Below are positions 9,715-60,133 of a stretch of DNA of 64,000 bases, piece after piece; the stretch's first letter is position 1; each line of letters starts with the position of its first letter. The notes beneath the pieces were generated by a model. That model did no database searches. It saw only the letters and a list, made by a program, of their open reading frames with translations, and was not told where the DNA came from. The position numbers and the translations under genes were made by a program. The DNA is from a virus (taxonomy: Duplodnaviria; Caudoviricetes), in the IMG/VR virus record IMGVR_UViG_3300007512_001664, positions 128,001 to 192,000 of that record. One strand, written 5' to 3'.

Positions 9715-9895
9715 CTTTTACTGGTCGGACATCTACTATTTGTTTTGTAATAAATTGACCAGTATGAGGATCGTTATAATGCGCTTCCGTACGTATTTCA
9801 TTACCCATTCTAACCTCTCTCATCGTAGGTGTAATTGTATTACCTGCTGGGCCCATTATGTTATTTGGATTTTTTTTATATTCAACTTTTCGCAT
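9701..9895 (-). CDS. Hypothetical protein (64 aa)
   Basis: Overlaps both neighbours in the operon. Confidence 0.65.
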   Translation of the reverse strand: MRKVEYKKNPNNIMGPAGNTITPTMREVRMGNEIRTEAHYNDPHTGQFITKQIVDVRPVKDEPK

Positions 9896-37816: not shown

Positions 37817-38008
37817 ATGACGGATTATGATAAATTATGTGAACGATATATGACTAGACAGGTGCGTTCATTTTATCCACGTAAATTTGAATTATCACAA
37901 GAATTTATTGATGCATTTAAATTAGAATATTCTCGATTAGCTGAAAGCGGTCAAAACAAAAAAACATTATTAGAAAGAATTCGTAAAGCCTTAAGCTTCC
38001 ATCTTTAA
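37817..38008 (+). CDS. Small late protein
   Basis: TAAATA at 37806-37811. Confidence 0.65.
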   Translation: MTDYDKLCERYMTRQVRSFYPRKFELSQEFIDAFKLEYSRLAESGQNKKTLLERIRKALSFHL

Positions 38009-38791
38009 ATCTCTCAATACTTTTACAATATATTTTAAGATTTCAGACCGTACAATATCCAACTCATTAAATTTAAATGTACATATACCGTGCTTATAGG
38101 ACTCCTCCGTATTAAATGCATTTAAAATTGATTTAAAACCAGTCTTACTTCCTATATCACTTTGCTGAGTATCTCCGGTTACTATATATTTTGTATTTTC
38201 ACCGAATCGTGTTAAAATTGTAGTTAATTCCCCGGAGGTTAAATTTTGTGCTTCATCAATTAAAACACAGGCGTTATTAAACGTTAATCCACGTACGTAA
38301 TTTACCGGAACACACTTAATATATTGTTCAGTTATTAGACTAGAAGATAAAGACTTATCTAAAAATTCATTTAATTTTTCAAATAACGGAAAACACCACG
38401 GTAAAAATTTATCATCAACTTCTCCCGGTAATGAGCCCATGCTTTTTGACGCTGACTCTACAATACTTCGTATGTAGATAATTTCTTGTACTTTTTGTGT
38501 ACGTAATAATTGTAATGCGACATATACTGATAAATATGTCTTTGCCGACCCGGCAGGCCCATCGACTAACGCCATTCTACATATATCCTTAAAACATGTT
38601 TCAAGGAATTGTTCGTGAACGGGTGTTATTTCATATTTTTGTTTAACATCAAAATTTAGGAATGTATTCTTCTCTATACTTTCTTTAATTTCCTTATTGT
38701 TAACTAATTTTTTCTTACTAACTCGTCTGCCACTTAATGCAGTCTTTTTAGTTGAGTTAGAAACCGACGCGGAACGTCCTTTTCTAGCCAT
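37991..38791 (-). CDS. phoH: PhoH-like ATPase
   Basis: GPAGSAKT, RS.VE..G.LPG, RGLTF, IDEAQN, GD..QSD, DIVRS; minus-strand TAAATA at 38801-38806. Confidence 0.92.
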   Translation of the reverse strand: MARKGRSASVSNSTKKTALSGRRVSKKKLVNNKEIKESIEKNTFLNFDVKQKYEITPVHEQFLETCFKDICRMALVDGPAGSAKTYLSVYVALQLLRTQKVQEIIYIRSIVESASKSMGSLPGEVDDKFLPWCFPLFEKLNEFLDKSLSSSLITEQYIKCVPVNYVRGLTFNNACVLIDEAQNLTSGELTTILTRFGENTKYIVTGDTQQSDIGSKTGFKSILNAFNTEESYKHGICTFKFNELDIVRSEILKYIVKVLRDLKMEA

Positions 38792-42004: not shown

Positions 42005-42591
42005 ATTTTATAGTAAAAAAACATCACTTAAACGATACTGGTTTAACGAGACATTATTTAACTTTATACTCTATAGTTTTAGGAATGGAGTCGAAGAATG
42101 TATTTGAATTCGGCGCCGGTTTTTCGACTCAAGCAATGGTTGAGGCGTTAAAATTAACTGGCGGTAAATTAACTAGTGTAGATAAAAGGTCTCTATCTGA
42201 GCGAGAAGATATTCCTGATGATTTTGTAACTGATAGTAAGGATATATGGTCATTTTGCCCAGGAAACTCTTTAGATGTTGTACCTACTTTAGATCATAGT
42301 GAATGTTATGATGTTGTATTACATGACGGTTCTCATACTGATGTAGAAGTTACTAAAGATTTAAATAATATAGCTCCATATGTTAAAAGTGGAGGATTAG
42401 TTTTAGTACACGACACAGCTCATTATGATCTCGGTCCTGAAATGAGACGAGGCCTAGCAAATAGTGATTTAATTAAAAAATATAAACACGACGGAACAAC
42501 ATTACCTTATGGTTACGGTCTGACTATTGTAAAAATATTTGATAACCCTGATAATAATAAAAAAGTTAACATACTATGGAGAAAAGAATAA
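41983..42591 (+). CDS. Class I SAM methyltransferase (Methyltransf_24-like)
   Basis: VFEFGAGFST, LHDGSH, GGLVLVHD. Confidence 0.85.
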   Translation: METKSDIDFIVKKHHLNDTGLTRHYLTLYSIVLGMESKNVFEFGAGFSTQAMVEALKLTGGKLTSVDKRSLSEREDIPDDFVTDSKDIWSFCPGNSLDVVPTLDHSECYDVVLHDGSHTDVEVTKDLNNIAPYVKSGGLVLVHDTAHYDLGPEMRRGLANSDLIKKYKHDGTTLPYGYGLTIVKIFDNPDNNKKVNILWRKE

Positions 42592-43541
42592 CATTTCTTA
42601 CAACTCATCGTGACTTCAACACAGGCTCTTACAGGATCTGGATTCATGATCTTAATAATTATTTTCAACAATTAAATATACCCTCTCAGATTGCTCATGA
42701 TATTGGAGATGAAGAGATTGTTATTGTTGTAAAGGGTGAACTTGAATTAGCTCACAATATAAAAATAGCTCACCCAGAAAAAAAGGTAGGATTAATAAAT
42801 CCCGCGATAGGTAAATATGATTATTGTGATTTTCTTATTGTAGGTTCGATAGAAGAACAAGCAAGTTTATCAATGAACAAAAATGTATTTTTGTATCCGT
42901 TAATTGAAGAATTATATCAAAATATAGATATAAAAGAACATACTGATACAGATGTATTACGTTTTTGCTTTCATGGTCATTACCCTCATTTAGCTAAGTT
43001 TGATCCACATGTCAAACTCGCATTGGAAGAATTTTCTAAAGAGAGGGAAATTGAGCTGCTTATTATTCATGGCCATCCAGAGTTTGATTGGCAAATTGGT
43101 CGACCGGATATAAAAATAAAATATAAGCCATGGCATGCAGGTACAATAGCTCAGAATATTCTATCAGCTGATATAGGATTATGCCCTAATGTTACATATA
43201 TAGATGATTATAAGCGAGATCAGGTTATTGATACTGGAGCATATGACACGGATTATGTAGTTAGGTTTAAAAATAAATCTAACGCTGGTAGAGCGTTTGT
43301 TTTTCATCAATTAGGGTTACCTGTTGTAACAGATCTTACTCCCAGCAACTTACATATTCTAGGAAACCCTGAACATGGTTTAATTGCCGCAGATAAAGAC
43401 GGGTGGCTAAAGGCATTTAGACAGCTATCATCTTCTAATAACAGAAACGAAATGGCATTAAAGGCGAAACAAGAATTTGACAGGCTTTATGATCCGTTAG
43501 TATGGGCGAAGAGAATATATACACAGCTAAATGAGTTATAA
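42576..43541 (+). CDS. GT-B-like glycosyltransferase
   Basis: GSYRIW, DIGLCP, KSNAGR......LGLPVV. Confidence 0.65.
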   Translation: MEKRITFLTTHRDFNTGSYRIWIHDLNNYFQQLNIPSQIAHDIGDEEIVIVVKGELELAHNIKIAHPEKKVGLINPAIGKYDYCDFLIVGSIEEQASLSMNKNVFLYPLIEELYQNIDIKEHTDTDVLRFCFHGHYPHLAKFDPHVKLALEEFSKEREIELLIIHGHPEFDWQIGRPDIKIKYKPWHAGTIAQNILSADIGLCPNVTYIDDYKRDQVIDTGAYDTDYVVRFKNKSNAGRAFVFHQLGLPVVTDLTPSNLHILGNPEHGLIAADKDGWLKAFRQLSSSNNRNEMALKAKQEFDRLYDPLVWAKRIYTQLNEL

Positions 43542-44163
43542 AGAATTAGTTTCAAAATATGGCCGTGGTTTAATGAGTCATGTTCAGTATACTGAAATAG
43601 CTAAAGAGTTAGAGCCACACTGTCCTTGTAATTTACTAGTTTTCGGTTTAGGAGACGACTCTCATTTGTGGCAAAACTTAAACATTAAGGGTGTAACAGT
43701 TTTTTTAGAAGATGATCAATCTTGGATAGATAAAATTTCAAATAAAAGCACAGAAGATTGTTCATATTTTGAGAATACTAATGAATTAACGGTACATCAT
43801 ATAAATTATAAAACAAAGATACAAGATTATCATCAAATAAATCTCGGTGTTAGAGATGATTCATTTTTTGATGAGGAAGAAATTAAAATCGATTTACCTT
43901 CTGAAGTAACGGATATTTTATGGGATTTTATAATTGTAGATGGCCCGTTAGGTCATCAACCACCACGGCCATATAATGGACCAGGTCGGATGAGTAGTAT
44001 TTTTTCCGCTTATTCATTGATAAAAGAAGATGGCATTATTGTTATAGATGATTATAATAGAGGTATTGAAAAAACATATTCAGATCATTATTTTGGGAAA
44101 GAAAATTTATTTAAAATGGTAGAAGGAAAGGTAGGTTTTTTTAAAAATGCAAAAAAGAGATAA
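43531..44163 (+). CDS. DUF579 / Polysacc_synt_4 (GXM/IRX15-like) polysaccharide O-methyltransferase
   Basis: CNLLVFGLG.DS..W..LN..G.TVFLE.D..WI, WDFIIVDGP.G, PGRMSSI. Confidence 0.78.
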   Translation: MSYKELVSKYGRGLMSHVQYTEIAKELEPHCPCNLLVFGLGDDSHLWQNLNIKGVTVFLEDDQSWIDKISNKSTEDCSYFENTNELTVHHINYKTKIQDYHQINLGVRDDSFFDEEEIKIDLPSEVTDILWDFIIVDGPLGHQPPRPYNGPGRMSSIFSAYSLIKEDGIIVIDDYNRGIEKTYSDHYFGKENLFKMVEGKVGFFKNAKKR

Positions 44164-44890
44164 AGGTATAATTTATACAGTTTATAATGCACTGGGTAAT
44201 ATGGAATTTTTTAGAGAATTAAGTATCTCTGTAGAGTCTTTTAGAAAATTTCATCCTGATCTTCATATTACTTGCTTTTCTGATATGAAGCCAGATGAGT
44301 TATTAAAGTTAGTACCAGGTATTGATGAATGCATACAAATTAATTGCCAGATATTAAGAGCAAAGGTCGATGTACTTAAGCATTCTCCATATGAAAAGAC
44401 ATTGTTCCTTGATACAGACACAGTTTTTAACTATAATGTTTACGACATATTTGATATGTTAGATGAATATGAGCTAGTTATTACTCATTGTTTGGCTAGA
44501 AAGAGAGAAAAATATTCAAAATGTATACCTGAATATAAAAACATTCCATATGCTTTTTCAGAAGTTAATACTGGTGTTTTAGGATTTAAAAAGTGTGATA
44601 ATATAGATAACTTATTTGATCTTTGGCCGAAATATTATCGTAAGTATTACAATGTTTGTCCATATGATCAACCTACATTTAGAGTTTCTTTATGGGAATC
44701 AAAAGCTAGATTATATATTTTACCTCCAGAGTATAATGCTAGGAGTAAACAGAACAGAGAAAAACAAAGAACGTTTCATCATGAATTTGGTCATGAGCAT
44801 CTTAGAGAGAGAATTCTTCATATGCATCATAAACAAAAAAATCTCGATTCAGCATTACAATATTGCTTAGAGAATTATCTTGAATATTAA
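44147..44890 (+). CDS. GT-A (DXD) nucleotide-diphospho-sugar transferase
   Basis: AKVD, TLFLDTD, NTGV, DQP.FR, EYN. Confidence 0.75.
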   Translation: MQKRDKGIIYTVYNALGNMEFFRELSISVESFRKFHPDLHITCFSDMKPDELLKLVPGIDECIQINCQILRAKVDVLKHSPYEKTLFLDTDTVFNYNVYDIFDMLDEYELVITHCLARKREKYSKCIPEYKNIPYAFSEVNTGVLGFKKCDNIDNLFDLWPKYYRKYYNVCPYDQPTFRVSLWESKARLYILPPEYNARSKQNREKQRTFHHEFGHEHLRERILHMHHKQKNLDSALQYCLENYLEY

Positions 44891-46488
44891 TGATTTGGAC
44901 CAATACATCTCTTTTTGATTCTCTTTTACCAAAAGAGCTAGTAACAACTACTCCAAGTAAAGCTACGTCAATTATATTAGGTGCTCCGCCTATAGATATA
45001 AAATTATTCCCTAATGTTAAATTTGTTTTTCGTGCAGGAGTTGGTACAGATAATGTAAATTTTTCTTCTGACATACAAGTAGAGTTTCCTTCAGTAAAAA
45101 CTAAGAATTACATCTATGAAGAAACTGCAAATTTTACTTGTAGTTTAATATTTAAAATGTTATATGATGGTATAGGAGACTTAACATCATGGAGTAGTAC
45201 TCAAAGACACGTTCTTACAAATAAGACTCTTCTTATTATCGGTCTAGGTAATATAGGACAAAGAGTTAAACATAAAATGGCTCCGTTTATTAAAAATATA
45301 TTAACTTATGATATTTTAAATGATGATAGACCTCCTGATTACAGTAAAGCTGATATAGTTACTCTTCATATACCTTATACTCCTCAAAATAAGAATTTTA
45401 TTAATAAAGAAAATCTTAAGAGATTTAAATCTGATGCTATTTTAATTAATACGGCTCGCGGTCCTTTAGTTAATGAAGATGATCTTTACCATCACTTAAA
45501 AATTACTAACATGCGTGCCGCGTTTGATGCTTTTTGGGAAGAGCCGTATACAGGTAAGCTTACTGAATTTAAAAGTGATAAGTTTTTCATGACACCTCAT
45601 ATAGCTAGTTCTAGTATAGAGTTTATTGAAGGTTGTTACGAAGATTTTAAATCACATCATGTACAAATTGCCGGTGCCGCTCGTCATCTGACGGATAAAA
45701 CCCCGGAACTAGATAAAGCCATAGAGTATACGGCGGGGTCGTATACTAACTTCTTAAAAGGTAAGAAAGTTATTATTATTGGCCCAGCACAGTATGTTAC
45801 TACTAAACCGTTCTATGGTTTTGGTGAAAAAATAGATAAAGAATTTGACGTTGTAGTAAGATTGAACAGAGGGTTAGATGTCATAGATAAGTACAAACCA
45901 TATATCGGCTCTAAAACAGATGTATTTTATAATTGTCTTATAGAGCATAAAGATAATGGAGGTATAATAGATATTAATAGACTTAAAGATCATAACATAC
46001 AGTGGGTATGTACAATACCACATTCTGATATTAAAGGTAATTGCCATAATAACAGGTTAAGTCCGATGGTCAATTTACAAACCGTATCTAAGATAGCAAA
46101 CAATTTTAATTTTCACGTAATGGATTATAGATTGTATGGAGAATTAAACAAAGGAGTAGCTTGTAGAGCTAATACTGGTTTTGCAGCGATATTTGATCTG
46201 TTAAATCGCGATGTTGAGTCTCTTTACGTTACTGGCTTTAGTTTTTATTTAGATAATTTTACACCAGGTTATAAAGAAGGTTGTACGAGAGATGAAGAGG
46301 AATTTGCTAAGCAATGTTTTGCATCTAAACGACATAATCAAGTAAATCAATGGGAGTATTCTCGTAAACATTTAAAAGATAACCCTAAAGTTATTTTAGA
46401 CGACGTATTAACTAAAATTTTAAATTTAAAAACTCTTAGTAGAGAAGAATTTAATGAAAAAACTCAAGATTTATATAGTAACGTATAA
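44890..46488 (+). CDS. D-2-hydroxyacid dehydrogenase fused to a GT29 sialyltransferase-like domain
   Basis: GLGNIG, TLHIP, INTARG, EEP, TPHIA; then sialylmotif-L-like VIIIGPA..GEKID..DVVVRLN..GSKTD, motif-S-like NTGFAAI..LYVTGF, and H. Confidence 0.8.
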   Translation: MIWTNTSLFDSLLPKELVTTTPSKATSIILGAPPIDIKLFPNVKFVFRAGVGTDNVNFSSDIQVEFPSVKTKNYIYEETANFTCSLIFKMLYDGIGDLTSWSSTQRHVLTNKTLLIIGLGNIGQRVKHKMAPFIKNILTYDILNDDRPPDYSKADIVTLHIPYTPQNKNFINKENLKRFKSDAILINTARGPLVNEDDLYHHLKITNMRAAFDAFWEEPYTGKLTEFKSDKFFMTPHIASSSIEFIEGCYEDFKSHHVQIAGAARHLTDKTPELDKAIEYTAGSYTNFLKGKKVIIIGPAQYVTTKPFYGFGEKIDKEFDVVVRLNRGLDVIDKYKPYIGSKTDVFYNCLIEHKDNGGIIDINRLKDHNIQWVCTIPHSDIKGNCHNNRLSPMVNLQTVSKIANNFNFHVMDYRLYGELNKGVACRANTGFAAIFDLLNRDVESLYVTGFSFYLDNFTPGYKEGCTRDEEEFAKQCFASKRHNQVNQWEYSRKHLKDNPKVILDDVLTKILNLKTLSREEFNEKTQDLYSNV

Positions 46489-47347
46489 GAGATCAGATGT
46501 TTTAAATGATACATTAGAAAAATTATTTAAATCTGATTTCTCTCAAATACCAAATACAGAAGTTAATATAATTAACAATCATACTGACTTTAAACTTAAT
46601 TCGCAATTTAAAGACAAGGTTAATGTATTACATAACGTCCTTAGACCAGATTGGTCTAACGGTAATTTAGCTGAAAATTGGAACCAAGCTTTAATTAATG
46701 GGTTTAAAGATCTCAATAAACCAGATTGTGAGTATCTAGTTACAATGCAAAATGATACAAGTGTTCATCCTAACTGGTGTAGTAATCTTTTAAAAATGCA
46801 TAAGAAGTATAATTTTATCGTAGGTAAGTTTGGCGATAATTTAGTAAGCTATACACCAGCAGCTGTTAAGAAGATTGGCATTTGGGATGAAAATTTCTTT
46901 GGAGTACAGTATAAAGAAGCAGATTATTGGTTACGAGCTTTAATTTTTAATAAAGAAAAATCGTGTATTAATGACATCCTACATGGTATTGAATTGAATA
47001 ACACTGATGCTCTTGAATTAGACACAGTAGCTGATCGAGTATTTGTTAAAGAACAAGGTTTTAGAGGAGATGAAACGTTAAAGCGAAGAGCAGATGACTC
47101 CGAGCATCAAGAAATTTGGAAAACTAGATCTGGTATATATAAAGAATATGCTTGGATGTATTTTTTTAATAAATGGAACGGTACATGGATTAAAAAACCG
47201 GAAAAATCTCAGTGGGTCAAGGCATGGCCAGCGGAACTTATTAATAACCCACCTGATATAACAAAATCTAAAATTAAATCTATCATAAAGTATTTGTATT
47301 TCGAAAAAGATATAGAAAACTTGAAAGGTAAAAATTATTTGTTATAG
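46454..47347 (+). CDS. GT2-like glycosyltransferase
   Basis: IVTYKR, WNQAL, QNDT, IGIWDENF...Y.EADY. Confidence 0.7.
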   Translation: MKKLKIYIVTYKRSDVLNDTLEKLFKSDFSQIPNTEVNIINNHTDFKLNSQFKDKVNVLHNVLRPDWSNGNLAENWNQALINGFKDLNKPDCEYLVTMQNDTSVHPNWCSNLLKMHKKYNFIVGKFGDNLVSYTPAAVKKIGIWDENFFGVQYKEADYWLRALIFNKEKSCINDILHGIELNNTDALELDTVADRVFVKEQGFRGDETLKRRADDSEHQEIWKTRSGIYKEYAWMYFFNKWNGTWIKKPEKSQWVKAWPAELINNPPDITKSKIKSIIKYLYFEKDIENLKGKNYLL

Positions 47348-47352
47348 ACTAT

Positions 47353-47382
47353 TTGACAAACTATTGTAATTATATATATAAG
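47353..47382 (+). promoter_or_regulatory. Sigma70-like promoter TTGACA...TATATA
   Basis: Perfect -35 at 47353-47358 and a TA-rich -10 at 47375-47382, immediately before ATG 47384. Confidence 0.6.
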
Positions 47383-47383
47383 G

Positions 47384-48085
47384 ATGAAGATTTTTATACC
47401 AATTAAACATGAATCTCAGAGAGTACCTGGTAAGAATTTTCGGCAATTAAGCGGTCTACCTCTTTACAAACATACACTTTACAAATTAAAAGATTATAAG
47501 GTTTTTGTTGATACGGATAGTGATGAAATAATTCATAATATACGTAATGATGTTAATTTAAGGAATGTTGTTACTCTTAAGAGACCTCATTATTTATGTG
47601 GTAACGATGTATCAGTAAATAAACTTATTGATAATCTTTTAAATGGGCATTGGCGCGGCGGAGCAGAGACATCTACAGTTATAGAGCCTAGCGATGTCGT
47701 ATGTCAAATTCATGTAACTAGTCCTTTCCTTAAATTAGAAACTTTAGAGAAGGCGTATAAGTTTTTTGAAAATGATAAGTGTGATTCCGTTGTTAGTTGT
47801 AATTTAATAAATTCTCGTTTATGGAGAAAGGAAGAATATGGTTATTGTCCCGTAAATCACAACCCTCTAAAACTAGAACAAACTCAATCACTTCCAACGT
47901 TGTATGAAGAGAATTCTGCTTTTTATATGTTTAAAAAAAGTGTATTTACTACTATTAAAAATAGGGTAGGTAAAAACCCAGCTTTCTTTAAAGTCGATCA
48001 TCCTGAGAATTTTGATATTGACACAGAAGATAATTGGCGGGAGTGTTTAAAAATTAATGAGACTCTTATGGCAACAACTTCCTAG
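47384..48085 (+). CDS. Acylneuraminate cytidylyltransferase-like (NeuA/KdsB family) 1
   Basis: IPIK.ESQRVPGKN, VDTDS, HVTSPF, YEENSAFY, DIDT. Confidence 0.88.
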   Translation: MKIFIPIKHESQRVPGKNFRQLSGLPLYKHTLYKLKDYKVFVDTDSDEIIHNIRNDVNLRNVVTLKRPHYLCGNDVSVNKLIDNLLNGHWRGGAETSTVIEPSDVVCQIHVTSPFLKLETLEKAYKFFENDKCDSVVSCNLINSRLWRKEEYGYCPVNHNPLKLEQTQSLPTLYEENSAFYMFKKSVFTTIKNRVGKNPAFFKVDHPENFDIDTEDNWRECLKINETLMATTS

Positions 48086-48737
48086 TCCAACAATTACAGA
48101 GATATTATGTAATTCTACATTTGACGGAGTAGTCTTCGATCTCGAACATGGATGCTTTAATAATGAGACATTGTATACCTGTATACAGGTATGTTTACTT
48201 AAAAACAAATTATGTTTTATTAGAGTTACTTGGCTAGATAAGACTGTTATTAGAATGAGTTTAGATGCTGGTGTGTCAGGAGTTATATTTTCAACAGTAC
48301 AGAATTATTTTAAAGCTAAGGAGTATTATAATTACTGTTTTTACCCACCTAAAGGTAGTAGAGGACAAGGTTTAGTCAGAGAAAATGAGTGGGGTAATAA
48401 AGATTTTAAAAAACGTGACCCTATAGTTGTAGCTCAAATAGAAACACGAACAGGTTTAGATAATATAAGCATTATCGCAGAAGTAGATTTTGATTATTTT
48501 ATGGTTGGGCCATATGATTTATCCGCAAGCTTAGGATGTGTTGGTAATTTTGATTCCCCTGTATATAAAACAGCTATAGAAAAATTAAAATCGAAAGTCG
48601 GAAATAAACTTGGTTATCACATAGTTAAAAATATTGAAGATCAATTAGATATTTACAGAGATTCAGAGTTTTTAGCTTTATCAATGGATACACTTTTTCT
48701 TATTGACGGAATAAAGAGGATCGAGGACGTAAAGTGA
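48057..48737 (+). CDS. HpcH/HpaI class II pyruvate aldolase
   Basis: DLEHG, RV, LDAG..GV, YPP.G.RG, QIET, GPYDLS.S.G. Confidence 0.88.
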   Translation: MRLLWQQLPSPTITEILCNSTFDGVVFDLEHGCFNNETLYTCIQVCLLKNKLCFIRVTWLDKTVIRMSLDAGVSGVIFSTVQNYFKAKEYYNYCFYPPKGSRGQGLVRENEWGNKDFKKRDPIVVAQIETRTGLDNISIIAEVDFDYFMVGPYDLSASLGCVGNFDSPVYKTAIEKLKSKVGNKLGYHIVKNIEDQLDIYRDSEFLALSMDTLFLIDGIKRIEDVK

Positions 48738-49171
48738 TTTTAATCTCTCATAGAGGTAATTTAACTGGTAAAAATTCTAAATTAGAGAATAAACCTCTCC
48801 AAATTCAAACGGTATTAGACTTAGGGTTTCATTGTGAGATAGATGTTTGGTTTATAAACGGCGAATATTTATTAGGACATGATGAACCGAAAATTCGTAT
48901 TAAGGAGTATGCACTTGAACATCCTCATCTATGGTGTCATGCTAAAAATTTAGAAGCATTACAGATGATGTTAAAGAATCGTAACATACATTGCTTTTGG
49001 CATGAAACAGATCAATATACTATTACTTCGGAGCAATTTATTTGGACGTATCCAGGTAAATACGCTTCAGAAAATTGCATTATTGTAGATAATTCGAAAA
49101 ACCCTCCTAATTATAATTGTAAGGGTATTTGCTCCGACTATGTACAATCATATAAAACACGTTATTTTTGA
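48734..49171 (+). CDS. PLC-like / GDPD-like phosphodiesterase-fold protein
   Basis: ISHRGN, EIDVW, LGHD, WCHAKN, GICSD; GTGA-coupled. Confidence 0.75.
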   Translation: MILISHRGNLTGKNSKLENKPLQIQTVLDLGFHCEIDVWFINGEYLLGHDEPKIRIKEYALEHPHLWCHAKNLEALQMMLKNRNIHCFWHETDQYTITSEQFIWTYPGKYASENCIIVDNSKNPPNYNCKGICSDYVQSYKTRYF

Positions 49172-50540
49172 TCTCGACGGTGTTTTACTAGATAGTAGAG
49201 ATTTACATTATTACGCATTTAATGACGCCTTACGTTCAATTAATGAGTCCTATGTTATTTCTCGAGAAGAGCATCTATCTTCATATGACGGTCATACAAC
49301 TACCACAAAACTTAAATTGTTAACTAAGGCCAAGCAGCTTCCAGAGAGCAAGTATGACGAAATTTGGAATCTAAAACAACAATTTACAACCGACCGCCTT
49401 CAATCCTTACAAGAGAATTTAGACTTACAACGGTTATTTAAATTTTTAAAAGATAAAGGATTAAAAATATCTATTGCATCTAATGCAATACGTCAAACAG
49501 TGTGGACATGCCTTGATAAAATAGGAGTACTTAGGTATTGTGATCATGTATTAACTAATGAAGATGTGTTTCTTTGTAAACCTAATGCAGAAATGTATAT
49601 GAGATGTATGATACACACAAAGACTAATCCAGATGAAACTGTAATTGTTGAAGATTCTCATACTGGAAGAAAAGGAGCTATTAGAAGTGGTTCTCATCTG
49701 TGTCCTGTAACAGGGCCAGAAGAGGTAACATTTAATTATATAACTAATTTTATTCAAAATAAAGATAAGACTATGGAAGAAATAAAACCTAAATGGCTAG
49801 GTGGTGATATGAATGTATTAATTCCCATGGCTGGTGCTGGTACGCGGTTTGAAAAAGCTGGTTACACCTTTCCAAAGCCGTTAGTTGATGTAAATGGTAA
49901 ACCGATGATACAGACGGTGGTCGATAATTTAAATATTGAAGCCAATTATATTTTTATTGTCCAAAAATCTCATTATGAGAAATATCATTTACAAACAGTA
50001 CTAGAAAACATAGTACCGAAATGCACAATTGTACAAGTTGAAGGTATAACAGAGGGTGCGGCATGTACTACTCTATTAGCTAAAGAGTTTATTAATAATG
50101 ATAAACCGTTAATTATGGCTAATTCTGATCAATATGTAGATTGGGATAGTAATGAATTTATGTATTCTATGGTCGGAGATAACGTGGATGGTGGTATTTT
50201 AACTTTTAAATCTACACATCCTAAATGGAGTTATGCAAGATTAGGAGATAACGGGTTTGTTACAGAGGTCGCTGAAAAGAAACCTATATCTAATATTGCT
50301 ACAGTTGGTATTTATTATTGGTCTAAAGGGTCCGATTATGTAAAATATGCTGAGCAAATGATAGATAAAAATATTAGGACAAATAATGAATTTTATGTTT
50401 GTCCTGTGTTTAACGAAGCTATAGAAGATGGAAAAAATATTAAAATTTTTGATGTACCGAAAATGTGGGGTCTAGGTACCCCGGAGGATTTGAATAATTT
50501 TATATCTAATTATGAAAGTATGCGCGACAATTCCAATTAA
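49140..50540 (+). CDS. HAD phosphatase fused to an NTP-transferase (nucleotidyltransferase)
   Basis: FDLDG, ASN, KP, EDS; then IPMAGAG.RF, PKPL, ANSDQ, EKK.IS, EFYV.PVFN, LGTPEDL. Confidence 0.88.
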   Translation: MYNHIKHVIFDLDGVLLDSRDLHYYAFNDALRSINESYVISREEHLSSYDGHTTTTKLKLLTKAKQLPESKYDEIWNLKQQFTTDRLQSLQENLDLQRLFKFLKDKGLKISIASNAIRQTVWTCLDKIGVLRYCDHVLTNEDVFLCKPNAEMYMRCMIHTKTNPDETVIVEDSHTGRKGAIRSGSHLCPVTGPEEVTFNYITNFIQNKDKTMEEIKPKWLGGDMNVLIPMAGAGTRFEKAGYTFPKPLVDVNGKPMIQTVVDNLNIEANYIFIVQKSHYEKYHLQTVLENIVPKCTIVQVEGITEGAACTTLLAKEFINNDKPLIMANSDQYVDWDSNEFMYSMVGDNVDGGILTFKSTHPKWSYARLGDNGFVTEVAEKKPISNIATVGIYYWSKGSDYVKYAEQMIDKNIRTNNEFYVCPVFNEAIEDGKNIKIFDVPKMWGLGTPEDLNNFISNYESMRDNSN

Positions 50541-51156
50541 AAGTAATTCTACTAGAGTAAAGGATAAGAATTTTAAAGATTTAGGAGGTAAGCCTTTATA
50601 TCAGTATATTATTGATCATTGCATACAAGCAGAATGTTTTGATGATATATATGTAGATACTGATAGTCCTGAGATTAATAGTTATTGTGTAAAAAATCAG
50701 GTAATATGCATTAAACGTAAACCTGAACTCACATTAGACACTGCAAATGGTAATGATGTCTTTCACTATGATATAGATTTTATAGGGCATTACGATTTTT
50801 ACTTTCAATTATATGCTACAGCACCATTTTTAAAGCCAGAAACTATTAGAGAGTGTGTAGATAAGTTAACTCATAGTTCAAAGCATGATTCTATACTTAC
50901 AGCTACAGAAGAATTTGGGTGGTTTTGGCATAAAGATCAACCTGTAAATTATCAGCCTAATATCTTACCTAGATCTCAAGATGCTACACCTGTTATAAAG
51001 GAGACAACCGGTTTATATGGTATATCGAAAAGCGCATATGATAGGTTTAGATGTCGTGTAGGTGCTACTCCGTATTTCTATATAATTAATGATAGAGCAG
51101 AGTGTATTGATTTAGATACAAATGAAGATTTTAGTTTAGCAGAGAACATGTTATAA
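50512..51156 (+). CDS. Acylneuraminate cytidylyltransferase-like (NeuA/KdsB family) 2
   Basis: IPIKSNSTRVKDKN, VDTDS, ATAPF, RSQD, ETTGLY, DLDT.EDF. Confidence 0.88.
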   Translation: MKVCATIPIKSNSTRVKDKNFKDLGGKPLYQYIIDHCIQAECFDDIYVDTDSPEINSYCVKNQVICIKRKPELTLDTANGNDVFHYDIDFIGHYDFYFQLYATAPFLKPETIRECVDKLTHSSKHDSILTATEEFGWFWHKDQPVNYQPNILPRSQDATPVIKETTGLYGISKSAYDRFRCRVGATPYFYIINDRAECIDLDTNEDFSLAENML

Positions 51157-51162: not shown

Positions 51163-51759
51163 ATGGAAATTATTAATAATACAGATCCGAATATAGTAAG
51201 AAAAACATATGAGTGGTTCGATCAGCACACACGCTATGGTTCATCTTTTCACGGTGAGTCATTATTGCCGATTGTAAAATCATTAAAAAATGTTAATTCT
51301 GTTTTAGATATCGGAACTGGTCGCGGAGACTTTTGTAATTGGGCTATTGAAAATTTATGTCAAGACGTTACAGGCTTGGATTTTGCTATTACCCCGAATC
51401 CAAATTATTTAAATAAAAATATTAAATTTATTAAAAATACATCACACGAAATACCATTGCTAGATAACTCTGTTGATCTTGTGGTTTCGTTTGATGTATT
51501 AGAACATATAAGACCAGAAGATATAACAGAAACAATAAAAGAGTTTTCTAGAGTAACAAAAAAATACATGCTACATAAAATATCTTCAACCGCCGCATCA
51601 GCAGAATATGGAAAAAATAATCCGCATATACAAGAAATCGGTAACTTGCATCTTATACAGCAATCCCGTGGTTGGTGGTTTAATAAATTTAAAGAGTATA
51701 TTCCTAATTCATCTATATACAGATTGGATCGTTGTTTATTTGTAGTTAAAGATGTATAA
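51163..51759 (+). CDS. Class I SAM methyltransferase (Methyltransf_11-like)
   Basis: VLDIGTGRG, GLD, IP..DNSVDLV..FDVLEH. Confidence 0.85.
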   Translation: MEIINNTDPNIVRKTYEWFDQHTRYGSSFHGESLLPIVKSLKNVNSVLDIGTGRGDFCNWAIENLCQDVTGLDFAITPNPNYLNKNIKFIKNTSHEIPLLDNSVDLVVSFDVLEHIRPEDITETIKEFSRVTKKYMLHKISSTAASAEYGKNNPHIQEIGNLHLIQQSRGWWFNKFKEYIPNSSIYRLDRCLFVVKDV

Positions 51760-52429
51760 AGCGTGTTGTATTACTAGTATTACGGGTGATAGGTCTAAAT
51801 TAGTTGATCCGCTATTTGTTCATCCTAATATCGATTATTTTGCGTTCGTCGATAAAACATATAATAATATAAAAGTATGGAACCAAAAAAAGATTTATGA
51901 TTTTAGCACTATAGATAATTATTCAAATAGGAGAAATGCAAAGATATATAAAATTTTACCTCACCTATTTTTACCTGGGTATGATTATTATATATGGTGT
52001 GACGCAAACTGTATTTTTAAGGAAGACCCGGTTAAATTAATTGAACAGTACTCTGTTGACGCTATATTTTTTTATCATTATAGATATAATACTATTTTTA
52101 ATGATATAGAAAAAATAATTAAGCGCAAGAAAGATCATTTAATTAATATAGATAATTATATAGAATTTTTATCTAATTCTAATTACATAGACGATATGCT
52201 CTTACAATTTTCTATGTTTATTACTACTAATAGTCATGAAAGTATGTTAATGAGATTAATTTGGTGGGAATTAATATGTAAATTTTCTTCTCGTGATCAA
52301 ATCTCAGGACCGTATGCTATAAAAAAATCAAAAATTAGTTATCACATAATTAAACAGTCTTTAGGGCATGTAACACCATTAAGTAGTAATAATATAGGTA
52401 TAAAATTTAACCCAAGCAAGCATGATTAA
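51752..52429 (+). CDS. DUF616 (TOD1/MUCI70-like) glycosyltransferase-like protein
   Basis: TSITG, DYFAF.D, AKIYKILPH, IWCDAN, RDQIS. Confidence 0.72.
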   Translation: MYKACCITSITGDRSKLVDPLFVHPNIDYFAFVDKTYNNIKVWNQKKIYDFSTIDNYSNRRNAKIYKILPHLFLPGYDYYIWCDANCIFKEDPVKLIEQYSVDAIFFYHYRYNTIFNDIEKIIKRKKDHLINIDNYIEFLSNSNYIDDMLLQFSMFITTNSHESMLMRLIWWELICKFSSRDQISGPYAIKKSKISYHIIKQSLGHVTPLSSNNIGIKFNPSKHD

Positions 52430-53267
52430 AATATGTCATATACGTGGTACACCGGAATATTGGAAGCATGAAAATCTTCCTAGAATTTCAGGTTGTCCTT
52501 CAGAAGAAAATAGAGACTTAATGTATAAATGTTGGAAAGAATATTTTAACATACCGTATCAAGAATTTAAATTACGCATAAGAGAAGCGACTATAAACTA
52601 TATTAAAGAATTAAATCAATTTGATGTTATTTTATATAACAATGAACTGTATCGTGATTTTTTAAAAAATAATAAAATTGATAATATAATGCTATATAGT
52701 CAAGACGATGATGATATATTATACTTTATACCGGACCATATATCTCCCGGTATGAACATTTATAATTATAGTTATATTGATATAACAAATACTAAAAGAC
52801 TTGACTATGAATTGGATGATAATTTTTGTACGTTTCTTCCTAAAAAATTACAATCAAATCATGCAATATATTTTGTGTTAAATGAGCCAGATTTTATTCA
52901 AAACATAAAATCATATGGTTATATTCGCGCTCATACTATTTATGATTCATACAAAGAGTGTTTAATAGAAAAAAATGTACATATTTCTTATCATGACTAT
53001 TTTTTTACAACCCAATTTTATCATTTAACTAGCTTATCTTTATGGAAAAATATTGCTGGTACTAGTAAAACATCTAGGCATATTAGAGAGTATTTTTTTG
53101 AGAAAAAGCAGTTCGATAGAGATTGTATTTTTAAAATATTTGATTGTTATATAGATTTTATAAAAAAATTTAATATACCAAGACAATTGAACGACGTAAA
53201 ATATAAAAAAGGAGCGGAGTTAATTAATACATTTAAAAATCTATACATTGATGTAAGTACTTTATAA
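52422..53267 (+). CDS. Hypothetical protein (DDD motif, possibly GT-A)
   Basis: QDDDD; coupled within the island. Confidence 0.55.
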   Translation: MIKICHIRGTPEYWKHENLPRISGCPSEENRDLMYKCWKEYFNIPYQEFKLRIREATINYIKELNQFDVILYNNELYRDFLKNNKIDNIMLYSQDDDDILYFIPDHISPGMNIYNYSYIDITNTKRLDYELDDNFCTFLPKKLQSNHAIYFVLNEPDFIQNIKSYGYIRAHTIYDSYKECLIEKNVHISYHDYFFTTQFYHLTSLSLWKNIAGTSKTSRHIREYFFEKKQFDRDCIFKIFDCYIDFIKKFNIPRQLNDVKYKKGAELINTFKNLYIDVSTL

Positions 53268-54394
53268 TGAAAATAGCTATTTTATGTTTTGGTCAGCCTA
53301 GATTTTTAGATCTAACACATGAATATATTAAGCAGGAATTTAATATGCCCGGTCATGATGTCGATTACTTCTTCCATCTATGGAGAGGTGTAGGTTATAA
53401 CCCAGAAGATTCAATTAATAGTACATATGACACAGTACCAGATCTTGATAAGCTAGTTCAGAGCTTTAATCCAAAAATGTGGATTCTCGAGGATTATAAA
53501 TCTACCGGTTGTCAGATTATGTTTGAAAAACATAGGAAGTGGCGCTGGAAAGATCAACATTCATTGGTAGATCTGTGTAATGCTTGGAGTGTTATGAATG
53601 ATTTTGTTAGTTATAATAGAGATACTCCTATACCTAATTCCAAACGATTGGAGTATTTCTTCGGACAACATTACAGTATACAAAAATGTTTTAATTTAAT
53701 TGAACAGTACGAAGAGTTAAATGGTTTTAAATATGACATTGTAATAAAAATTAGAACAGATATAGTCTATAGAACGCCTAATTTATATAAATCTCCAGAG
53801 GTGTATGATTTGCATAAAGTAGAACATTATACAGATTTTCCTACGGATTATCCTTGTATTAATGTTAAAGGATTACGTATTAATAGATTACAGATAAAAG
53901 AGAATACATGGAAAGGTCAAGATATATCATGTTTTTATAAAGGAAAGTATAGTTTACCGGATGAAGATTATGCTAAGAAGAAAAAATCTATTAAATTTGA
54001 TTTAAATACACGGTTATGTTTTAACGACTGGACTATTATCGCTAATCGAGCGGCAGCTCATTATTATTTTGGTAGATGGTTTGAGACATATTTAATAACT
54101 TATGGAGAAGATTTATTGTATCGTAAAGACAGATATTGGTATAAAAGTCAATCTGATCATACCCTTCAAGGTCATATAGCTTTATATAATGACATTAAAG
54201 TTAACAGAGTCAATAGACGAGATATGAAACTGGTCAGAGAAGATAAACTTGAAGGAGAAAAATCTAAAGATAGTTTATCTAATAAAGCCGTAGTACCGTC
54301 GAATAATGAAATAGATCTCGATAGTTGGATATGGGATAGATGGAAACCAAAAACAAAAACAAAATCAGATTGGACAGTTCAGCAAAAAAAATAA
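53267..54394 (+). CDS. G(Q/E)PR-family putative glycosyltransferase, paralog 1
   Basis: MKIAILCFGQPR, FFHLW, YFFGQ..S, YDIVIKIRTD. Confidence 0.7.
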   Translation: MKIAILCFGQPRFLDLTHEYIKQEFNMPGHDVDYFFHLWRGVGYNPEDSINSTYDTVPDLDKLVQSFNPKMWILEDYKSTGCQIMFEKHRKWRWKDQHSLVDLCNAWSVMNDFVSYNRDTPIPNSKRLEYFFGQHYSIQKCFNLIEQYEELNGFKYDIVIKIRTDIVYRTPNLYKSPEVYDLHKVEHYTDFPTDYPCINVKGLRINRLQIKENTWKGQDISCFYKGKYSLPDEDYAKKKKSIKFDLNTRLCFNDWTIIANRAAAHYYFGRWFETYLITYGEDLLYRKDRYWYKSQSDHTLQGHIALYNDIKVNRVNRRDMKLVREDKLEGEKSKDSLSNKAVVPSNNEIDLDSWIWDRWKPKTKTKSDWTVQQKK

Positions 54395-55395
54395 AAATTG
54401 CTATTTTACTATATGGTCAGCCTCGCTTTTTTGAGCATACATATAAAAACATACAAGAGGCGTATACTATAGACGGGTGTGAAACCGATTTTTTTGCTCA
54501 TTTCTGGGAAGATGTTGGGTTTTATCCTGGTGACGACTATACAGATACATATATAAGGACTAAAGAGAGAGTAGAGAAGTGCCTTATAGATTTACAGGTT
54601 AAAGATTATATACAAGAAGATTATACTGAGTTAGATCTCCTTGGTGATTCGCAAAAGATAATATATGATTTTTTAACTCAGTCGCGCCGTGACATTTCTC
54701 GAATCCGTCCAGTTACTAATACACGAGGCCGGTATCATTATGGACAACACTTGAGTTTACATAAATGTTTTTGCTTAATGGAGAAATTTGAACGTCGAAA
54801 GAACTTTAAGTATGATGTCGTTATAAAGGTTCGTAGTGATTGGATCTATTCACCTAGTGACTCCATTACAAAATATAAAGCATATATTGAAAAATTAGTT
54901 GAACCTAATTTCATGAAGTTCGAATGCAAACGACTTACGACTCTTAGTCTCAAAAAATATGACTTACGTACGAAAACAGAATATCATTTATAAAAAGCGG
55001 ATTGTAAAAAGGCTGATCTACACAATTGTGTGATATCTATATCTGATATTTTTATTAATTGTAGTCGAGGCGCCGCGAAGTATATTTTTAAAGATTGGTT
55101 ATTTTATTATAATTATCTTCAATGCATATACACCCATAATTATGGTTCTTTAAAAAATATACTCGAAGAAAAAGAAAAATCATATAATAAAATTAATCGT
55201 ATTTTAGGCGATATTTGTATGATAAATGGTATCGGAGCTTTTAAGTGTTCAAAATCAAGTATAAAAATTCATCGACTTATGTTAAAGGATAAATGTAAGA
55301 AAAAATGGGTGAACTCTAGGCGTCGTATAGTCTTACCGGATTTGAATTGTAATATACCACAATATATCGAACAAGCTTTACATGAAAACAAATGA
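54391..55395 (+). pseudogene. G(Q/E)PR-family paralog 2 with ATA start and in-frame TAA at 54991-54993
   Basis: Track ORFs 54340-54993 and 55030-55395 are in the same frame, separated by one TAA, and together match full-length paralogs; the 5' DNA is near-identical to the paralog at 55981 except ATG>ATA. Confidence 0.7.
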
Positions 55396-55984
55396 CATAA
55401 TAATAGTCCCTAAAGTTCCTAAATGGGAGTCTCATAAAACAGAAGGAGAAGTCATTGGTCCATGTAAAACTCGAAAAGATATAGGAGCATTATGTCAAAA
55501 ACTAGGTTGTAACAAGCGTGGTGTTGAATTAGGTGTGGCAAAAGGTAATTTCACATTTCAAGTACATAAGTATTTTGATCAGTTTTGGAGCATTGATAGT
55601 TGGTGTGATGTGCGACATGATACTAAACAATATGAGCGATTTAAACGCAAGATATCACGCAAAAAAATTACAAATATTAATGTAGTTCGCTCTGATTTTA
55701 ACACAGTAGTTAAATCGTTTGACGATTATTTTTTTGATTTTATTTATATTGACGGTTATGCTAAAGCCCATCATCAATTACGACTTAATTTAAAAAATTG
55801 GTTTATTAAACTAACTCCAGGAGGTATTTTCTCAGGTCATGACTGGCAATATCCACACGTACAGGAGATTATTAATGAGTTCGCAATTGATAAAAAATTA
55901 AATTTAAATGTTACCGGTGAACAGCATTATGGTTTGTCTGGTAGAATAAACACAAAAGGTCCTACATGGTGGTTTAAAACATGA
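55382..55984 (+). CDS. Class I SAM methyltransferase (Methyltransf_24-like)
   Basis: GVELGVAKG, SID.W, DFIYIDG, GGIFSGHD. Confidence 0.85.
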   Translation: MKTNDIIIVPKVPKWESHKTEGEVIGPCKTRKDIGALCQKLGCNKRGVELGVAKGNFTFQVHKYFDQFWSIDSWCDVRHDTKQYERFKRKISRKKITNINVVRSDFNTVVKSFDDYFFDFIYIDGYAKAHHQLRLNLKNWFIKLTPGGIFSGHDWQYPHVQEIINEFAIDKKLNLNVTGEQHYGLSGRINTKGPTWWFKT

Positions 55985-56910
55985 AAATTGCTATTTTACT
56001 ACACGGTCAGCCTCGTTTTTTTAAATATACTTATAAGAGAATAAAAGAAGAGTTTAATTTACCTGGTGTAGAGTTTAATTTTTTCGCTCATTTTTGGGAT
56101 AAAGTAGGGTATACTCCCGCGAGCACTGAGACTAATATTATAGATTTAATTCCTTTATTGGAGCAGTTAAATATAAAAAAATATTTAATTACTAATTACG
56201 ACAAATTAAATACTATTACTTCTTCAAATGAAGTCGTTAGATCTCTTGCTAAAGGTAATATATCAATAAAACCATTTAATCCCGATAATAGGTATCACTA
56301 CGGTCAATATGTTAGTTTATTAGAGGTTTTTAATCTAATGGAGCAATACGAACGTGATAATGATATAAAATATGATATCGTTATAAAAGTTCGTAGCGAC
56401 TGGGTATATAAAGATAAGAGTTGTTATACATCAGAGTTAGACTATCTTACGGCAAAGAAAGAAAATTATCTTTTCTCTGATGTGAGCAGAAAAATGATAA
56501 GAACAACATATGTAAATAAGAAAATTTATAATAATAAAGAATATGTAAGGAGCTTTGACCCGTATATTATAGCAACACGCCCAGCAGCGCCTTGTTTTTT
56601 TAAATATTGGTTTTTAGCTAATCTTAATGCCTTAATTAAAGATGTTTTGGTTCCTATAGATATTAAATTACATGTAAAGCACGATTTTATGATTGGAGAA
56701 ATTGCTAATTTATTCGACATACAAGTCGAAGAGATTACTTTAAATTATGGAATTGGTAGATGTCATAGAGTAGTTAATTTTGAAGATTGTAAGAAATTTT
56801 GGATTACAGATGATAAGAATATATCTATTATATTACCTACTTTGCAGTGTAATGTTAAAGAAGAAATACAAAAACAATTATTAACAATAAACCAAAGGAA
56901 ATCAAAATGA
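55981..56910 (+). CDS. G(Q/E)PR-family paralog 3
   Basis: MKIAILLHGQPRFF, FFAHFW, YHYGQYVS, YDIVIKVRSD. Confidence 0.7.
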   Translation: MKIAILLHGQPRFFKYTYKRIKEEFNLPGVEFNFFAHFWDKVGYTPASTETNIIDLIPLLEQLNIKKYLITNYDKLNTITSSNEVVRSLAKGNISIKPFNPDNRYHYGQYVSLLEVFNLMEQYERDNDIKYDIVIKVRSDWVYKDKSCYTSELDYLTAKKENYLFSDVSRKMIRTTYVNKKIYNNKEYVRSFDPYIIATRPAAPCFFKYWFLANLNALIKDVLVPIDIKLHVKHDFMIGEIANLFDIQVEEITLNYGIGRCHRVVNFEDCKKFWITDDKNISIILPTLQCNVKEEIQKQLLTINQRKSK

Positions 56911-60131: not shown

Positions 60132-60133
60132 AT

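Follow-up and report, generated by a model that had tools for sequence, protein, structure and literature searches.

How might a bacteriophage make and transfer an acidic keto-acid sugar if it encodes none of the synthases with which the synthesis of such sugars ordinarily begins? The question is raised by a cluster of seven genes (positions 44890-51156) in a 64,000-nucleotide stretch of DNA from a virus of the class Caudoviricetes (bases 128,001-192,000 of IMG/VR record IMGVR_UViG_3300007512_001664; this whole stretch is termed ‘the window’ below). To our knowledge, all characterised routes to keto-acid sugars activated with cytidine monophosphate (CMP), namely those to Kdo, Kdn, Neu5Ac, Pse and Leg, start with a phosphoenolpyruvate (PEP)-dependent synthase of the NeuB or KdsA type. 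A reading of the locus made from its letters and open reading frames (ORFs), termed here the sequence-only reading, had proposed that the phage instead joins pyruvate to an aldehyde with an aldolase, activates the product with CMP and transfers it with a glycosyltransferase of family GT29. The follow-up described here leads us to favour, with modest confidence, a PEP-independent, aldolase-based pathway to a CMP-ulosonate, coupled in this phage to a GT29 transferase of the bacterial type. Domain identities, catalytic residues, the GT29-like fold, the absence of NeuB and KdsA, and synteny were computed in this study; which sugar is made, and by what reaction at each step, is inferred.

All seven ORFs that had been listed for the locus were confirmed; they lie on the + strand, closely packed and in many cases overlapping. 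The features that bear directly on the proposed pathway, which include two cytidylyltransferases (CTases), are the following:

44890-45672, + strand: compact D-2-hydroxyacid dehydrogenase domain, residues 1-261 of a 532-amino-acid fusion protein (PF02826, E 2.6e-32)
45673-46488, + strand: GT29-like domain (sialyltransferase fold, GT-A variant 2), residues 262-532 of the same fusion, assigned by family profile and AlphaFold2 (AF2) model
47384-48085, + strand: CTase 1, a NeuA/PseF-like CMP-transferase (PF02348, 51.4 bits; PseF model TIGR03584, 57 bits)
48057-48737, + strand: class II (metal-dependent) HpcH/HpaI pyruvate aldolase, 226 amino acids (PF03328, 69.3 bits against a cut-off of 25; HpaI model TIGR02311, 96 bits)
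50512-51156, + strand: CTase 2, a NeuA/PseF-like CMP-transferase (PF02348, 74.9 bits; PseF model, 87 bits)

Aldolases of the HpcH family reversibly combine pyruvate and an aldehyde into a 4-hydroxy-2-oxo acid, the substructure by which Kdo, Kdn and the sialic acids are defined. The phage enzyme aligns over its full length with its top match in the PDB (HpaI, 4b5s, 8e-22), and solved ‘hydroxyketoacid aldolases’ of the HpcH/HpaI family are also found among its matches. The alignment to 4b5s shows that the catalytic set of HpaI is kept (the histidine of the DxEH motif, the arginine, and the metal ligands of QIE and GPxD), and these catalytic residues are invariant across 21 family members. The phage protein thus shares its fold family and identical catalytic His, Arg and Glu/Asp metal ligands with the HpaI, GarL and YfaU aldolases, but it is only about 25-30% identical to them, is shorter, and falls well short of the HpaI, GarL and RhmA equivalog cut-offs, from which it follows that it is not one of those enzymes. 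An identification as a PEP mutase, which would have implied phosphonate chemistry, was ruled out by the full-length best matches (HpaI, GarL and RhmA) and by the aldolase catalytic residues. The characterised family members HpaI, GarL and YfaU are catabolic, and one might accordingly imagine that the phage aldolase cleaves a 2-keto-3-deoxy acid sugar of the host during infection, and that the cluster recycles the fragments. We regard such a remodelling role as very improbable, in that the gene is embedded, on a single strand, among biosynthetic genes for glycosyltransferases, methyltransferases and nucleotidyltransferases, that the transporter, sialidase or kinase usual in catabolic loci is absent, and that synteny with a CTase is conserved; the setting is one of glycan biosynthesis beside a CTase, not of aromatic or sugar-acid catabolism.

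The sequence-only reading had noted that the window holds no PEP-dependent synthase, and had named the finding of neuB or kdsA elsewhere in the genome as grounds for refuting its proposal. Neither NeuB (PF03102) nor KdsA (PF00793) was found in the window or in the complete genome, using searches that did match control genomes; the IMG/VR record is 200,819 bp long, carries direct terminal repeats and is rated at 100% completeness. A NeuC-type epimerase, a DegT aminotransferase and a SIS isomerase were likewise not found in the complete phage genome. One 321-amino-acid ORF (42576-43541) was considered as a SIS isomerase and rejected; it is not the SIS-like protein that adjoins the aldolase in a related contig (L031).

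Enzymes of the CTP_transf_3 family (PF02348, for which the cut-off is 22.6 bits) activate the C2 position of 2-keto-3-deoxy acid sugars, and the resulting CMP-ulosonates are used by GT29, GT42 and Maf enzymes. Because the product class of the aldolase is what CTP_transf_3 enzymes activate and what GT29, GT42 and Maf-type enzymes transfer, the aldolase could replace NeuB or KdsA, taking over their C-C bond-forming step. CTase 1 and CTase 2 are the sole CTP_transf_3 genes in the phage genome and are about 30% identical to each other; the top PDB matches of CTase 1 are NeuA types, and that of CTase 2 is PpNeuA (8e-19). Both score far under the PseF and KdsB equivalog cut-offs, and their substrate specificity is therefore left unassigned. 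When a maximum-likelihood tree of 86 CTases was built, those linked to an aldolase formed two large clades apart from those linked to NeuB. CTase 1 clusters with viral aldolase-linked CTases (support 100/96), and both phage enzymes fall within one 27-row aldolase-cassette clade (98/95), alongside CTases from bacterial cassettes. Several of those cassettes also hold two CTases beside one aldolase, so that the observation from which two sugar donors had been suggested extends beyond this phage.

The aldolase recurs in 28 viral contigs, at 43-99% identity, where its synteny with a CTase is seen again; it is the CTase 1 type that is syntenic with the aldolase across phages. This unit, termed ‘module A’, consists of the aldolase and a CTase of that type, with or without the GT29-like protein and the 2-hydroxyacid dehydrogenase. 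The dehydrogenase follows immediately after the aldolase in three contigs (L016, L026 and L034), two of which (L026 and L034) display aldolase-dehydrogenase-CTase triads. In a group of Tara contigs (L031-33), one CTase abuts the aldolase and a second sits with NanE, NeuB and a GT29 protein matched by PF00777, an arrangement that suggests two independent CMP-sugar routes in one locus. In contig L019, the aldolase is flanked by a thiamine diphosphate-dependent enzyme (acetolactate-synthase-like, 595 amino acids, 8217-10004), which hints at an aldehyde-generating decarboxylase feeding the aldolase, and by a divergent HpcH-like protein (10681-11424). The closest ‘cellular’ relative of the aldolase (52% identity; loci L034/L035) is found in WJJM01000013.1, which is labelled as a metagenome-assembled genome of Candidatus Woesearchaeota and may be viral or mis-binned; its gene set comprises a CTase, a sulfotransferase, a DUF386 (YhcH-like) protein, the aldolase and a dehydrogenase, with giant Laminin_G_3 proteins adjoining.

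A scan of prokaryotes, in which 185,579 species of bacteria and archaea were represented by one genome each, returned at least 587 relatives of the aldolase subfamily, and gene neighbourhoods were counted around the best 80 of these (31-52% identity), which come from Pelagibacteraceae, Prochlorococcus, SAR86, Flavobacteriales, Bacteriovoracaceae, Legionellaceae, Leptospira, Desulfovibrio, Ilumatobacteraceae and others. The core gene set is present, to differing extents, in all 80 loci, and the principal neighbours are distributed as follows:

CTP_transf_3 gene: within 10 kb of the aldolase in 64 of the 80 loci, directly adjacent in 27
2-hydroxyacid dehydrogenase: within 10 kb in 50 of the 80 loci, directly adjacent in 11
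NeuB: within 10 kb in 22 of the 80 loci, directly adjacent in 1

Clustering of the neighbours yielded a recurrent bacterial order of dehydrogenase, SDR epimerase, HAD_2, aldolase, optional methyltransferase and CTase, often headed by a 6-phosphogluconolactonase/NagB-like gene or a PF04199 ‘cyclase’-like gene, and often accompanied nearby by a 634-amino-acid uncharacterised protein or an MptE-like transferase. A gene set that recurs in 28 viral contigs, and whose core is found in 80 of 80 prokaryotic loci, is not a chance neighbourhood; the link between aldolase and CTase first proposed from this single locus gains strong backing from the co-occurrence and adjacency of the two genes across numerous lineages of phages and bacteria, and from an aldolase-specific CTase clade. 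A wider proposal, which we advance tentatively and which may well prove incorrect, is that the series dehydrogenase-(SDR)-HAD-HpcH aldolase-CTase makes a CMP-activated ulosonic or ulosaric acid independently of PEP, by a pathway that is widespread and uncharacterised, and that its sugar may be one not yet described (for example hexulosonic, heptulosonic or 3-hydroxylated ulosonic). Such a pathway would be used by SAR11, Prochlorococcus, SAR86, Flavobacteriales, Bacteriovoracaceae, Leptospira and Desulfovibrio, and marine T4-like phages would have acquired it and linked it to transferases of the GT29 type, whether for remodelling the decoration of the infected cell or for decorating the virion.

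The same neighbourhoods bear upon a different explanation, in which the phage CTases act on Kdo or a nonulosonic acid made by the KdsA or NeuB of the host and the GT29-like domain transfers it, the aldolase and dehydrogenase serving otherwise (to form or split some small keto or hydroxy acid, or as auxiliary metabolic genes). Four of five tested cassette-bearing bacterial genomes contain NeuB, independence from which is for this reason not demonstrable in bacteria, and NeuB lies near the aldolase in the 22 loci counted above; in addition, both CTases are most like enzymes of the NeuA, PseF and KdsB types, and other marine phages carry ordinary kdsA and kdsB genes (PMC12801897). What such host-fed activation leaves unexplained is why, in many unrelated lineages, the aldolase has a CTase of its own that abuts or overlaps it, why the aldolase-linked CTases occupy clades distinct from the NeuB-linked ones, and why the CTases of the L031-33 contigs are split, one with NeuB and one with the aldolase. 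On this evidence we judge it unlikely, if still worth serious consideration.

The last step of the favoured aldolase-based pathway depends upon the C-terminal part of the fusion protein. Searched alone, these 270 amino acids gave no Pfam match (none to PF00777 even at E values up to 10) and no PDB sequence match, and a word-indexed search of 5.8 billion proteins, in which candidates were limited by the length of the full 532-amino-acid fusion, returned only the protein itself. An exhaustive HMMER search of 1.84 billion representatives, in turn, identified 919 relatives of the domain, 318 of them at E values of 1e-10 or below. Among 71 aligned homologues, 61 are matched by PF00777 (best 1e-12), and a distant homologue in contig L011 reaches 22.4 bits against a cut-off of 23. 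The profile check thus fails for the domain of the window itself and succeeds for most of its homologues, and membership of GT29 rests accordingly on transitive homology. The sialylmotif-like signatures reported by the sequence-only reading are both seen in the consensus of the 71-member alignment, motif L as K.V.IVGPA...G..ID..D.VVR.N and motif S as RPNTG..AI.DLL...LYITGF. Against solved structures, the family profile matches ST3Gal-I (2wml, 7.9e-7, with motifs L and S aligned), ST6Gal1 and ST8SiaIII, and more weakly the GT42 enzyme CstII (0.003). Downstream of motif S, Tyr200 and His221 (domain numbering) are near-invariant, and by inference His221 may be equivalent to the catalytic histidine of GT29.

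Structural comparison led to the same family. The AF2 model of the domain (pLDDT 94, pTM 0.91) found ST8SiaIII, ST6GalNAc2 and ST3Gal-I as its first Foldseek matches, and VIA-align Z scores ranged from 14.7 to 13.3 for GT29 structures, through about 12 for GT42 and 10.5 for an MptE-like HPPK protein, to 4.4 or less for unrelated folds. Among Swiss-Prot/AlphaFold DB models, plant and animal GT29 entries were among the best matches, including two plant types, GALT29A and the rice STLPs, that belong to a group containing proposed Kdo/Dha transferases of RG-II. As modelled, then, the fold, together with motifs L and S, is that of a GT29-type sialyltransferase; the sequence-only reading had staked its case on a GT29-like structure here, and both the predicted fold and the transitive profile homology uphold it. 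Its description of the domain as ‘eukaryote-style’ is unfit, since the cysteines of motifs L and S (which form a disulfide in the animal enzymes) are absent and the domain resembles an already described bacterial GT29-like group, whose members are soluble and lack both a transmembrane anchor and those cysteines (Petit et al. 2018, PMC5811610). Unlike the bacterial and plant GT29 proteins, the domain studied here is phage-encoded, fused to a dehydrogenase and itself below the PF00777 threshold. The presence of two CTases in its context is consistent with, and not proof of, a CMP-beta-ulosonate as its donor.

The N-terminal half of the fusion ORF (44890-46488) is more readily classified. Its 2-Hacid_dh_C domain, at residues 102-239, is matched by PF02826 at 112 bits (cut-off 25.1), and the protein scores well against the phosphoglycerate dehydrogenase model TIGR01327 (E 8e-29); its top PDB match is phosphoglycerate dehydrogenase (1wwk, E 2e-20), in alignment with which the NTARG, EEP and TPHI motifs are conserved and the Arg/Glu/His catalytic triad is kept. 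The nearest enzymes are phosphoglycerate dehydrogenases and glyoxylate/hydroxypyruvate reductases. A score of 18.3 bits against the catalytic-domain model PF00389, under its cut-off of 24.6, fits a shortened substrate-binding domain. The dehydrogenase and the GT29-like domain are fused in frame in three contigs (the window and two contigs 94-99% identical to it), occur as separate ORFs with an ATGA overlap in relatives of 75-78% identity (L005-L007 and L010), and in three further contigs (L009, L016 and L020) the GT29-like protein stands by itself. An assembly artefact is ruled out by the in-frame state in three contigs, by a distinct linker of about 50 nucleotides and by the ATGA-overlapping ORFs of the relatives: the fusion is recent and real, and is limited to this sublineage. 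It ties a member of the cassette, the dehydrogenase, to a transferase of the CMP-ulosonate-using type, and its reality argues that both proteins act in one pathway.

Put together, the favoured pathway would begin with the aldolase, which would combine pyruvate (or hydroxypyruvate) and an aldehyde or aldose from the host into a 4-hydroxy-2-oxo acid. The dehydrogenase would make or trim one of the aldol partners: it might convert glycerate or 3-phosphoglycerate to (phospho)hydroxypyruvate, in which case the aldolase would build a 3-hydroxylated ulosonate, or it might make or oxidise the aldehyde partner, in which case an ulosaric acid would result; an oxidation next to a carboxylate is among the candidate reactions. 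CTase 1 would then form the CMP-beta-glycoside, CTase 2 would probably do the same for a variant sugar, and the GT29 domain fused to the dehydrogenase would transfer the sugar onto an acceptor glycan, presumably built by the surrounding island of about 24 kb.

A number of points weigh against this scheme. The pathway enzymes are known here from their genes, from which their chemistry is predicted. Kdo, in a Gram-negative host, or the nonulosonic acids of many marine hosts could feed the CTases, and the cassette, which in four of the five tested bacterial genomes occurs together with NeuB, could modify the product of NeuB instead of replacing that enzyme. The dehydrogenase could reduce the 2-keto group of the aldol product, thereby abolishing the anomeric centre that is needed for CMP activation. 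As for the transferase, the domain in the window is itself under the Pfam threshold, the profile alignments to solved GT29 enzymes end at motif S and leave motifs III and VS unaligned, and a plant member of GT29, GALT29A, is annotated in Swiss-Prot as a galactosyltransferase, so that a CMP-sugar donor is not guaranteed by membership of the family.

Comparison with established systems clarifies what would be shared and what would be new. The Kdo pathway (KdsD-KdsA-KdsC-KdsB, followed by Kdo transferases) likewise couples a C3 unit to an aldose (or aldose phosphate), employs dephosphorylation by a HAD enzyme, and proceeds through CMP activation by a CTP_transf_3 enzyme to transfer. The bacterial cassette, with its isomerase- or lactonase-like protein, dehydrogenase, SDR, HAD phosphatase, aldolase and CTase, parallels that logic, and weak SIS-like and lactonase-like genes are present in some related cassettes. 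The phage nevertheless lacks KdsA (DAHP_synth_1), and its C3 donor would be pyruvate, acted upon by a metal-dependent HpcH aldolase, rather than PEP; its CTases are nearer to NeuA and PseF than to KdsB, and its transferase is GT29-like and does not belong to GT30, GT73, GT99 or GT107. With the sialic and other nonulosonic acid pathways (NeuC/NeuB/NeuA, Pse and Leg, with GT29, GT42 or Maf transferases) the phage has in common the NeuA-like CTases, the sialyltransferase fold and the L- and S-type motifs, and in related contigs the aldolase set is accompanied by a genuine set of NanE, NeuB, GT29 and CTase; it differs in having no NeuB, NeuC-type epimerase or DegT aminotransferase, and in the separate clades of its aldolase-linked CTases.

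A literature search found no paper in which an aldolase of the HpcH family is connected with cytidylyltransferases, with the synthesis of CMP-sugars, or with nonulosonic or heptulosaric acids, and papers on the nonulosonic acids of Tannerella and Leptospira make no mention of such aldolase cassette genes. The co-occurrence of aldolase, CTase and dehydrogenase is new here; phage-borne kdsA and kdsB, and GT29 enzymes in bacteria, were already known. If the pathway is real, a pyruvate aldolase would provide a new biosynthetic entry point to CMP-activated keto-acid sugars, and phages would carry a full donor-plus-transferase kit for an acidic sugar that is independent of host synthases. Such a route could also account for the sialyltransferase-like genes and orphan CTases that hypervariable glycan islands contain in abundant marine bacteria. 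Acidic sugars at the surface control how phages adsorb, as well as grazing and immune recognition. Since the cassette is present in isolate genomes (Leptospira gomenensis and L. fluminis, loci L085 and L086), the idea can be tested directly in culture.

What, then, is the purpose of the remaining genes of the cluster? The sequence-only reading had listed them with the genes of the route, as a GT2 enzyme, a ‘PDE-fold’ protein and a HAD-nucleotidylyltransferase (NTase) fusion:

46454-47347, + strand: divergent GT2-family glycosyltransferase, ‘GT2x’ (PF00535, E 1.6e-4, 22.1 bits; a weak match)
48734-49171, + strand: ‘mini-GDPD’, the ‘PDE-fold’ protein, a 145-amino-acid barrel resembling glycerophosphodiester phosphodiesterases (GDPD) (assigned by GDPD motif, profile and model)
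49140-49784, + strand: HAD-IA domain, beta-phosphoglucomutase/sugar-phosphatase-like (PF13419, HAD_2, E 1.2e-27; TIGR02009, 80 bits)
49785-50540, + strand: sugar-1-phosphate NTase domain, RmlA/GlmU-like (PF00483, E 2.3e-12; rmlA_long, 56 bits)

In viral contigs these genes form a ‘module B’ of mini-GDPD and NTase, with or without the HAD domain, together with the divergent GT2 and often a TylF-like methyltransferase. None of the 80 prokaryotic loci holds GT2x, mini-GDPD or the viral GT29-like family (profile A2), and the phage-type NTase is found in only two of them, several kb away. Because they are absent from the bacterial cassettes and travel as a virus-only unit, GT2x, mini-GDPD and HAD-NTase are probably not steps of the acid-sugar route, despite having been listed with it. 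Module B would instead be a second, virus-specific unit for another building block, in which the NTase probably feeds a separate route to a nucleoside diphosphate (NDP)-sugar.

The nearest ESM Atlas clusters of GT2x are viral GT2 proteins, and its family profile gave nothing useful against PDB sequences; it is 47-88% identical between distant loci, where mini-GDPD and the NTase are always found alongside. The HAD domain has an intact DxD motif (FDLDGV), is matched in the PDB by the TM1254 sugar phosphatase and beta-phosphoglucomutase, and is encoded by a gene of its own in contig L016. The NTase domain, 54-92% identical across phages, has as its top PDB match the NDP-sugar pyrophosphorylase 4evw (1.5e-19). 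In two contigs the HAD domain beside the NTase is replaced, by a RuBisCO-like protein (L018, 8352-9536; PF00016, 1.4e-34) and by a phosphoribulokinase-family kinase fused to a class II aldolase/adducin domain (L020, 6063-7475), replacements that by analogy recall pentulose-phosphate or methionine-salvage-type chemistry in module B.

Mini-GDPD has no Pfam match (none to PF03009), and carries the GDPD motif HRGN...E.D...GHD, in which His6, Arg7, Glu35, Asp37, His49 and Asp50 are invariant; its family profile matches the GDPD structure 7e0v at E 0.0014 over 50 residues. Foldseek gave weak, mixed TIM-barrel matches for its AF2 model (pLDDT 93.6), and a Foldseek-independent VIA search of the whole PDB pointed to GDPD, with the top 22 matches all of the GDPD/phospholipase-D (PLC-like phosphodiesterase) fold (Z 8.3-10.8). 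As modelled, it shares the barrel topology and the His/Arg/Glu/Asp/His constellation of GDPD enzymes such as GlpQ and the C-terminal domain of phage K gp155, but with 145 amino acids, against about 240, it has about 100 residues fewer than every solved GDPD, with most helices trimmed, and it occurs, next to the NTase and GT2, solely in the viral module. The prediction of a closed, barrel-like fold that retains all catalytic residues is a confident one, and the protein may represent a minimal phosphodiesterase scaffold.

In phages, mini-GDPD always lies between the NTase and the aldolase, a position that might be taken to join both modules in a single task. The aldolase, dehydrogenase and HAD domain would on that account make a non-sugar hydroxy acid (of glycerate, lactate or 2,4-dihydroxybutyrate type), which would be attached to a sugar as an acyl, ether or phosphodiester group. 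A phospho-linked form of the acid would be the concern of the NTase and mini-GDPD, and the CTases would have no connection with what the aldolase makes. D-2-hydroxyacid dehydrogenases do normally interconvert 2-keto and 2-hydroxy acids, and N-glyceroyl and related groups occur on nonulosonic acids without known genetics (PMC5378307). Such a supply of side chains is nonetheless rather improbable, given that bacterial cassettes keep the CTase beside the aldolase without mini-GDPD, GT2x or the phage-type NTase, and that fusion of the dehydrogenase to an enzyme of sialyltransferase fold points to a glycosyl-donor pathway. The aldolase-based pathway to a CMP-ulosonate remains the one we prefer for module A; for module B, the synthesis of a conventional NDP-sugar and phospho-linked unit, together with RmlB-like and RmlD-like genes at 10.8-12.7 kb of the window, is the more likely role. 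Those two genes (an RmlB/GDP-mannose-dehydratase-like SDR, 10765-11769, and an RmlD-like reductase, 11759-12688, both on the - strand) lie in the replication block, distant from the glycan genes; two more SDR genes are found elsewhere in the phage genome (44792-45526 and 62631-63383 of G000), and this set may process the NDP-sugar from HAD-NTase.

The phage itself is a distant T4-like marine myovirus, which encodes a family-B DNA polymerase, gp46/47-type SbcCD, a DnaB-like helicase, gp32 and a large terminase, and whose proteins are at best 29-37% identical to those of its closest relatives (Phage C48C1, Pelagibacter phage HTVC008M and cyanomyoviruses); psbA was not found in it. More than 10 studies have yielded seawater, marine and estuary metagenomes in which the cassette stretch recurs. 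The genes discussed above are embedded in the following larger feature:

38846-62909, + strand: glycan island of about 24 kb, all on a single strand, with many glycosyltransferases and methyltransferases

Pfam matches within the island include Gly_transf_sug, FkbM, Methyltransf_24, IRX15/GXM, TOD1/MUCI70, Methyltransf_11, a set of DUF7796-like paralogues and a kinase-GT2 fusion. Immediately upstream of it lies a PhoH-like ATPase (37991-38791, - strand), and a DHH/DHHA1 phosphoesterase (16154-17053, - strand) is encoded within the replication block. Two of the island’s families, IRX15/GXM and TOD1/MUCI70, are best known from plant cell-wall synthesis; they are represented by a glucuronoxylan 4-O-methyltransferase-like protein (43531-44163, E 2e-32) and a glycosyltransferase-like domain (51752-52429, E 7e-12), respectively. 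Five paralogues with faint similarity to DUF7796 and 28-45% mutual identity (53267-54394, 54340-54993, 55981-56910, 56907-57941 and 60107-61036) are spread along the island, and their copy number differs among related contigs. At 57931-59340, a protein-kinase/ABC1-like N-terminal domain is fused to a C-terminal GT2 domain, and may represent a sugar or lipid kinase coupled to a transferase.

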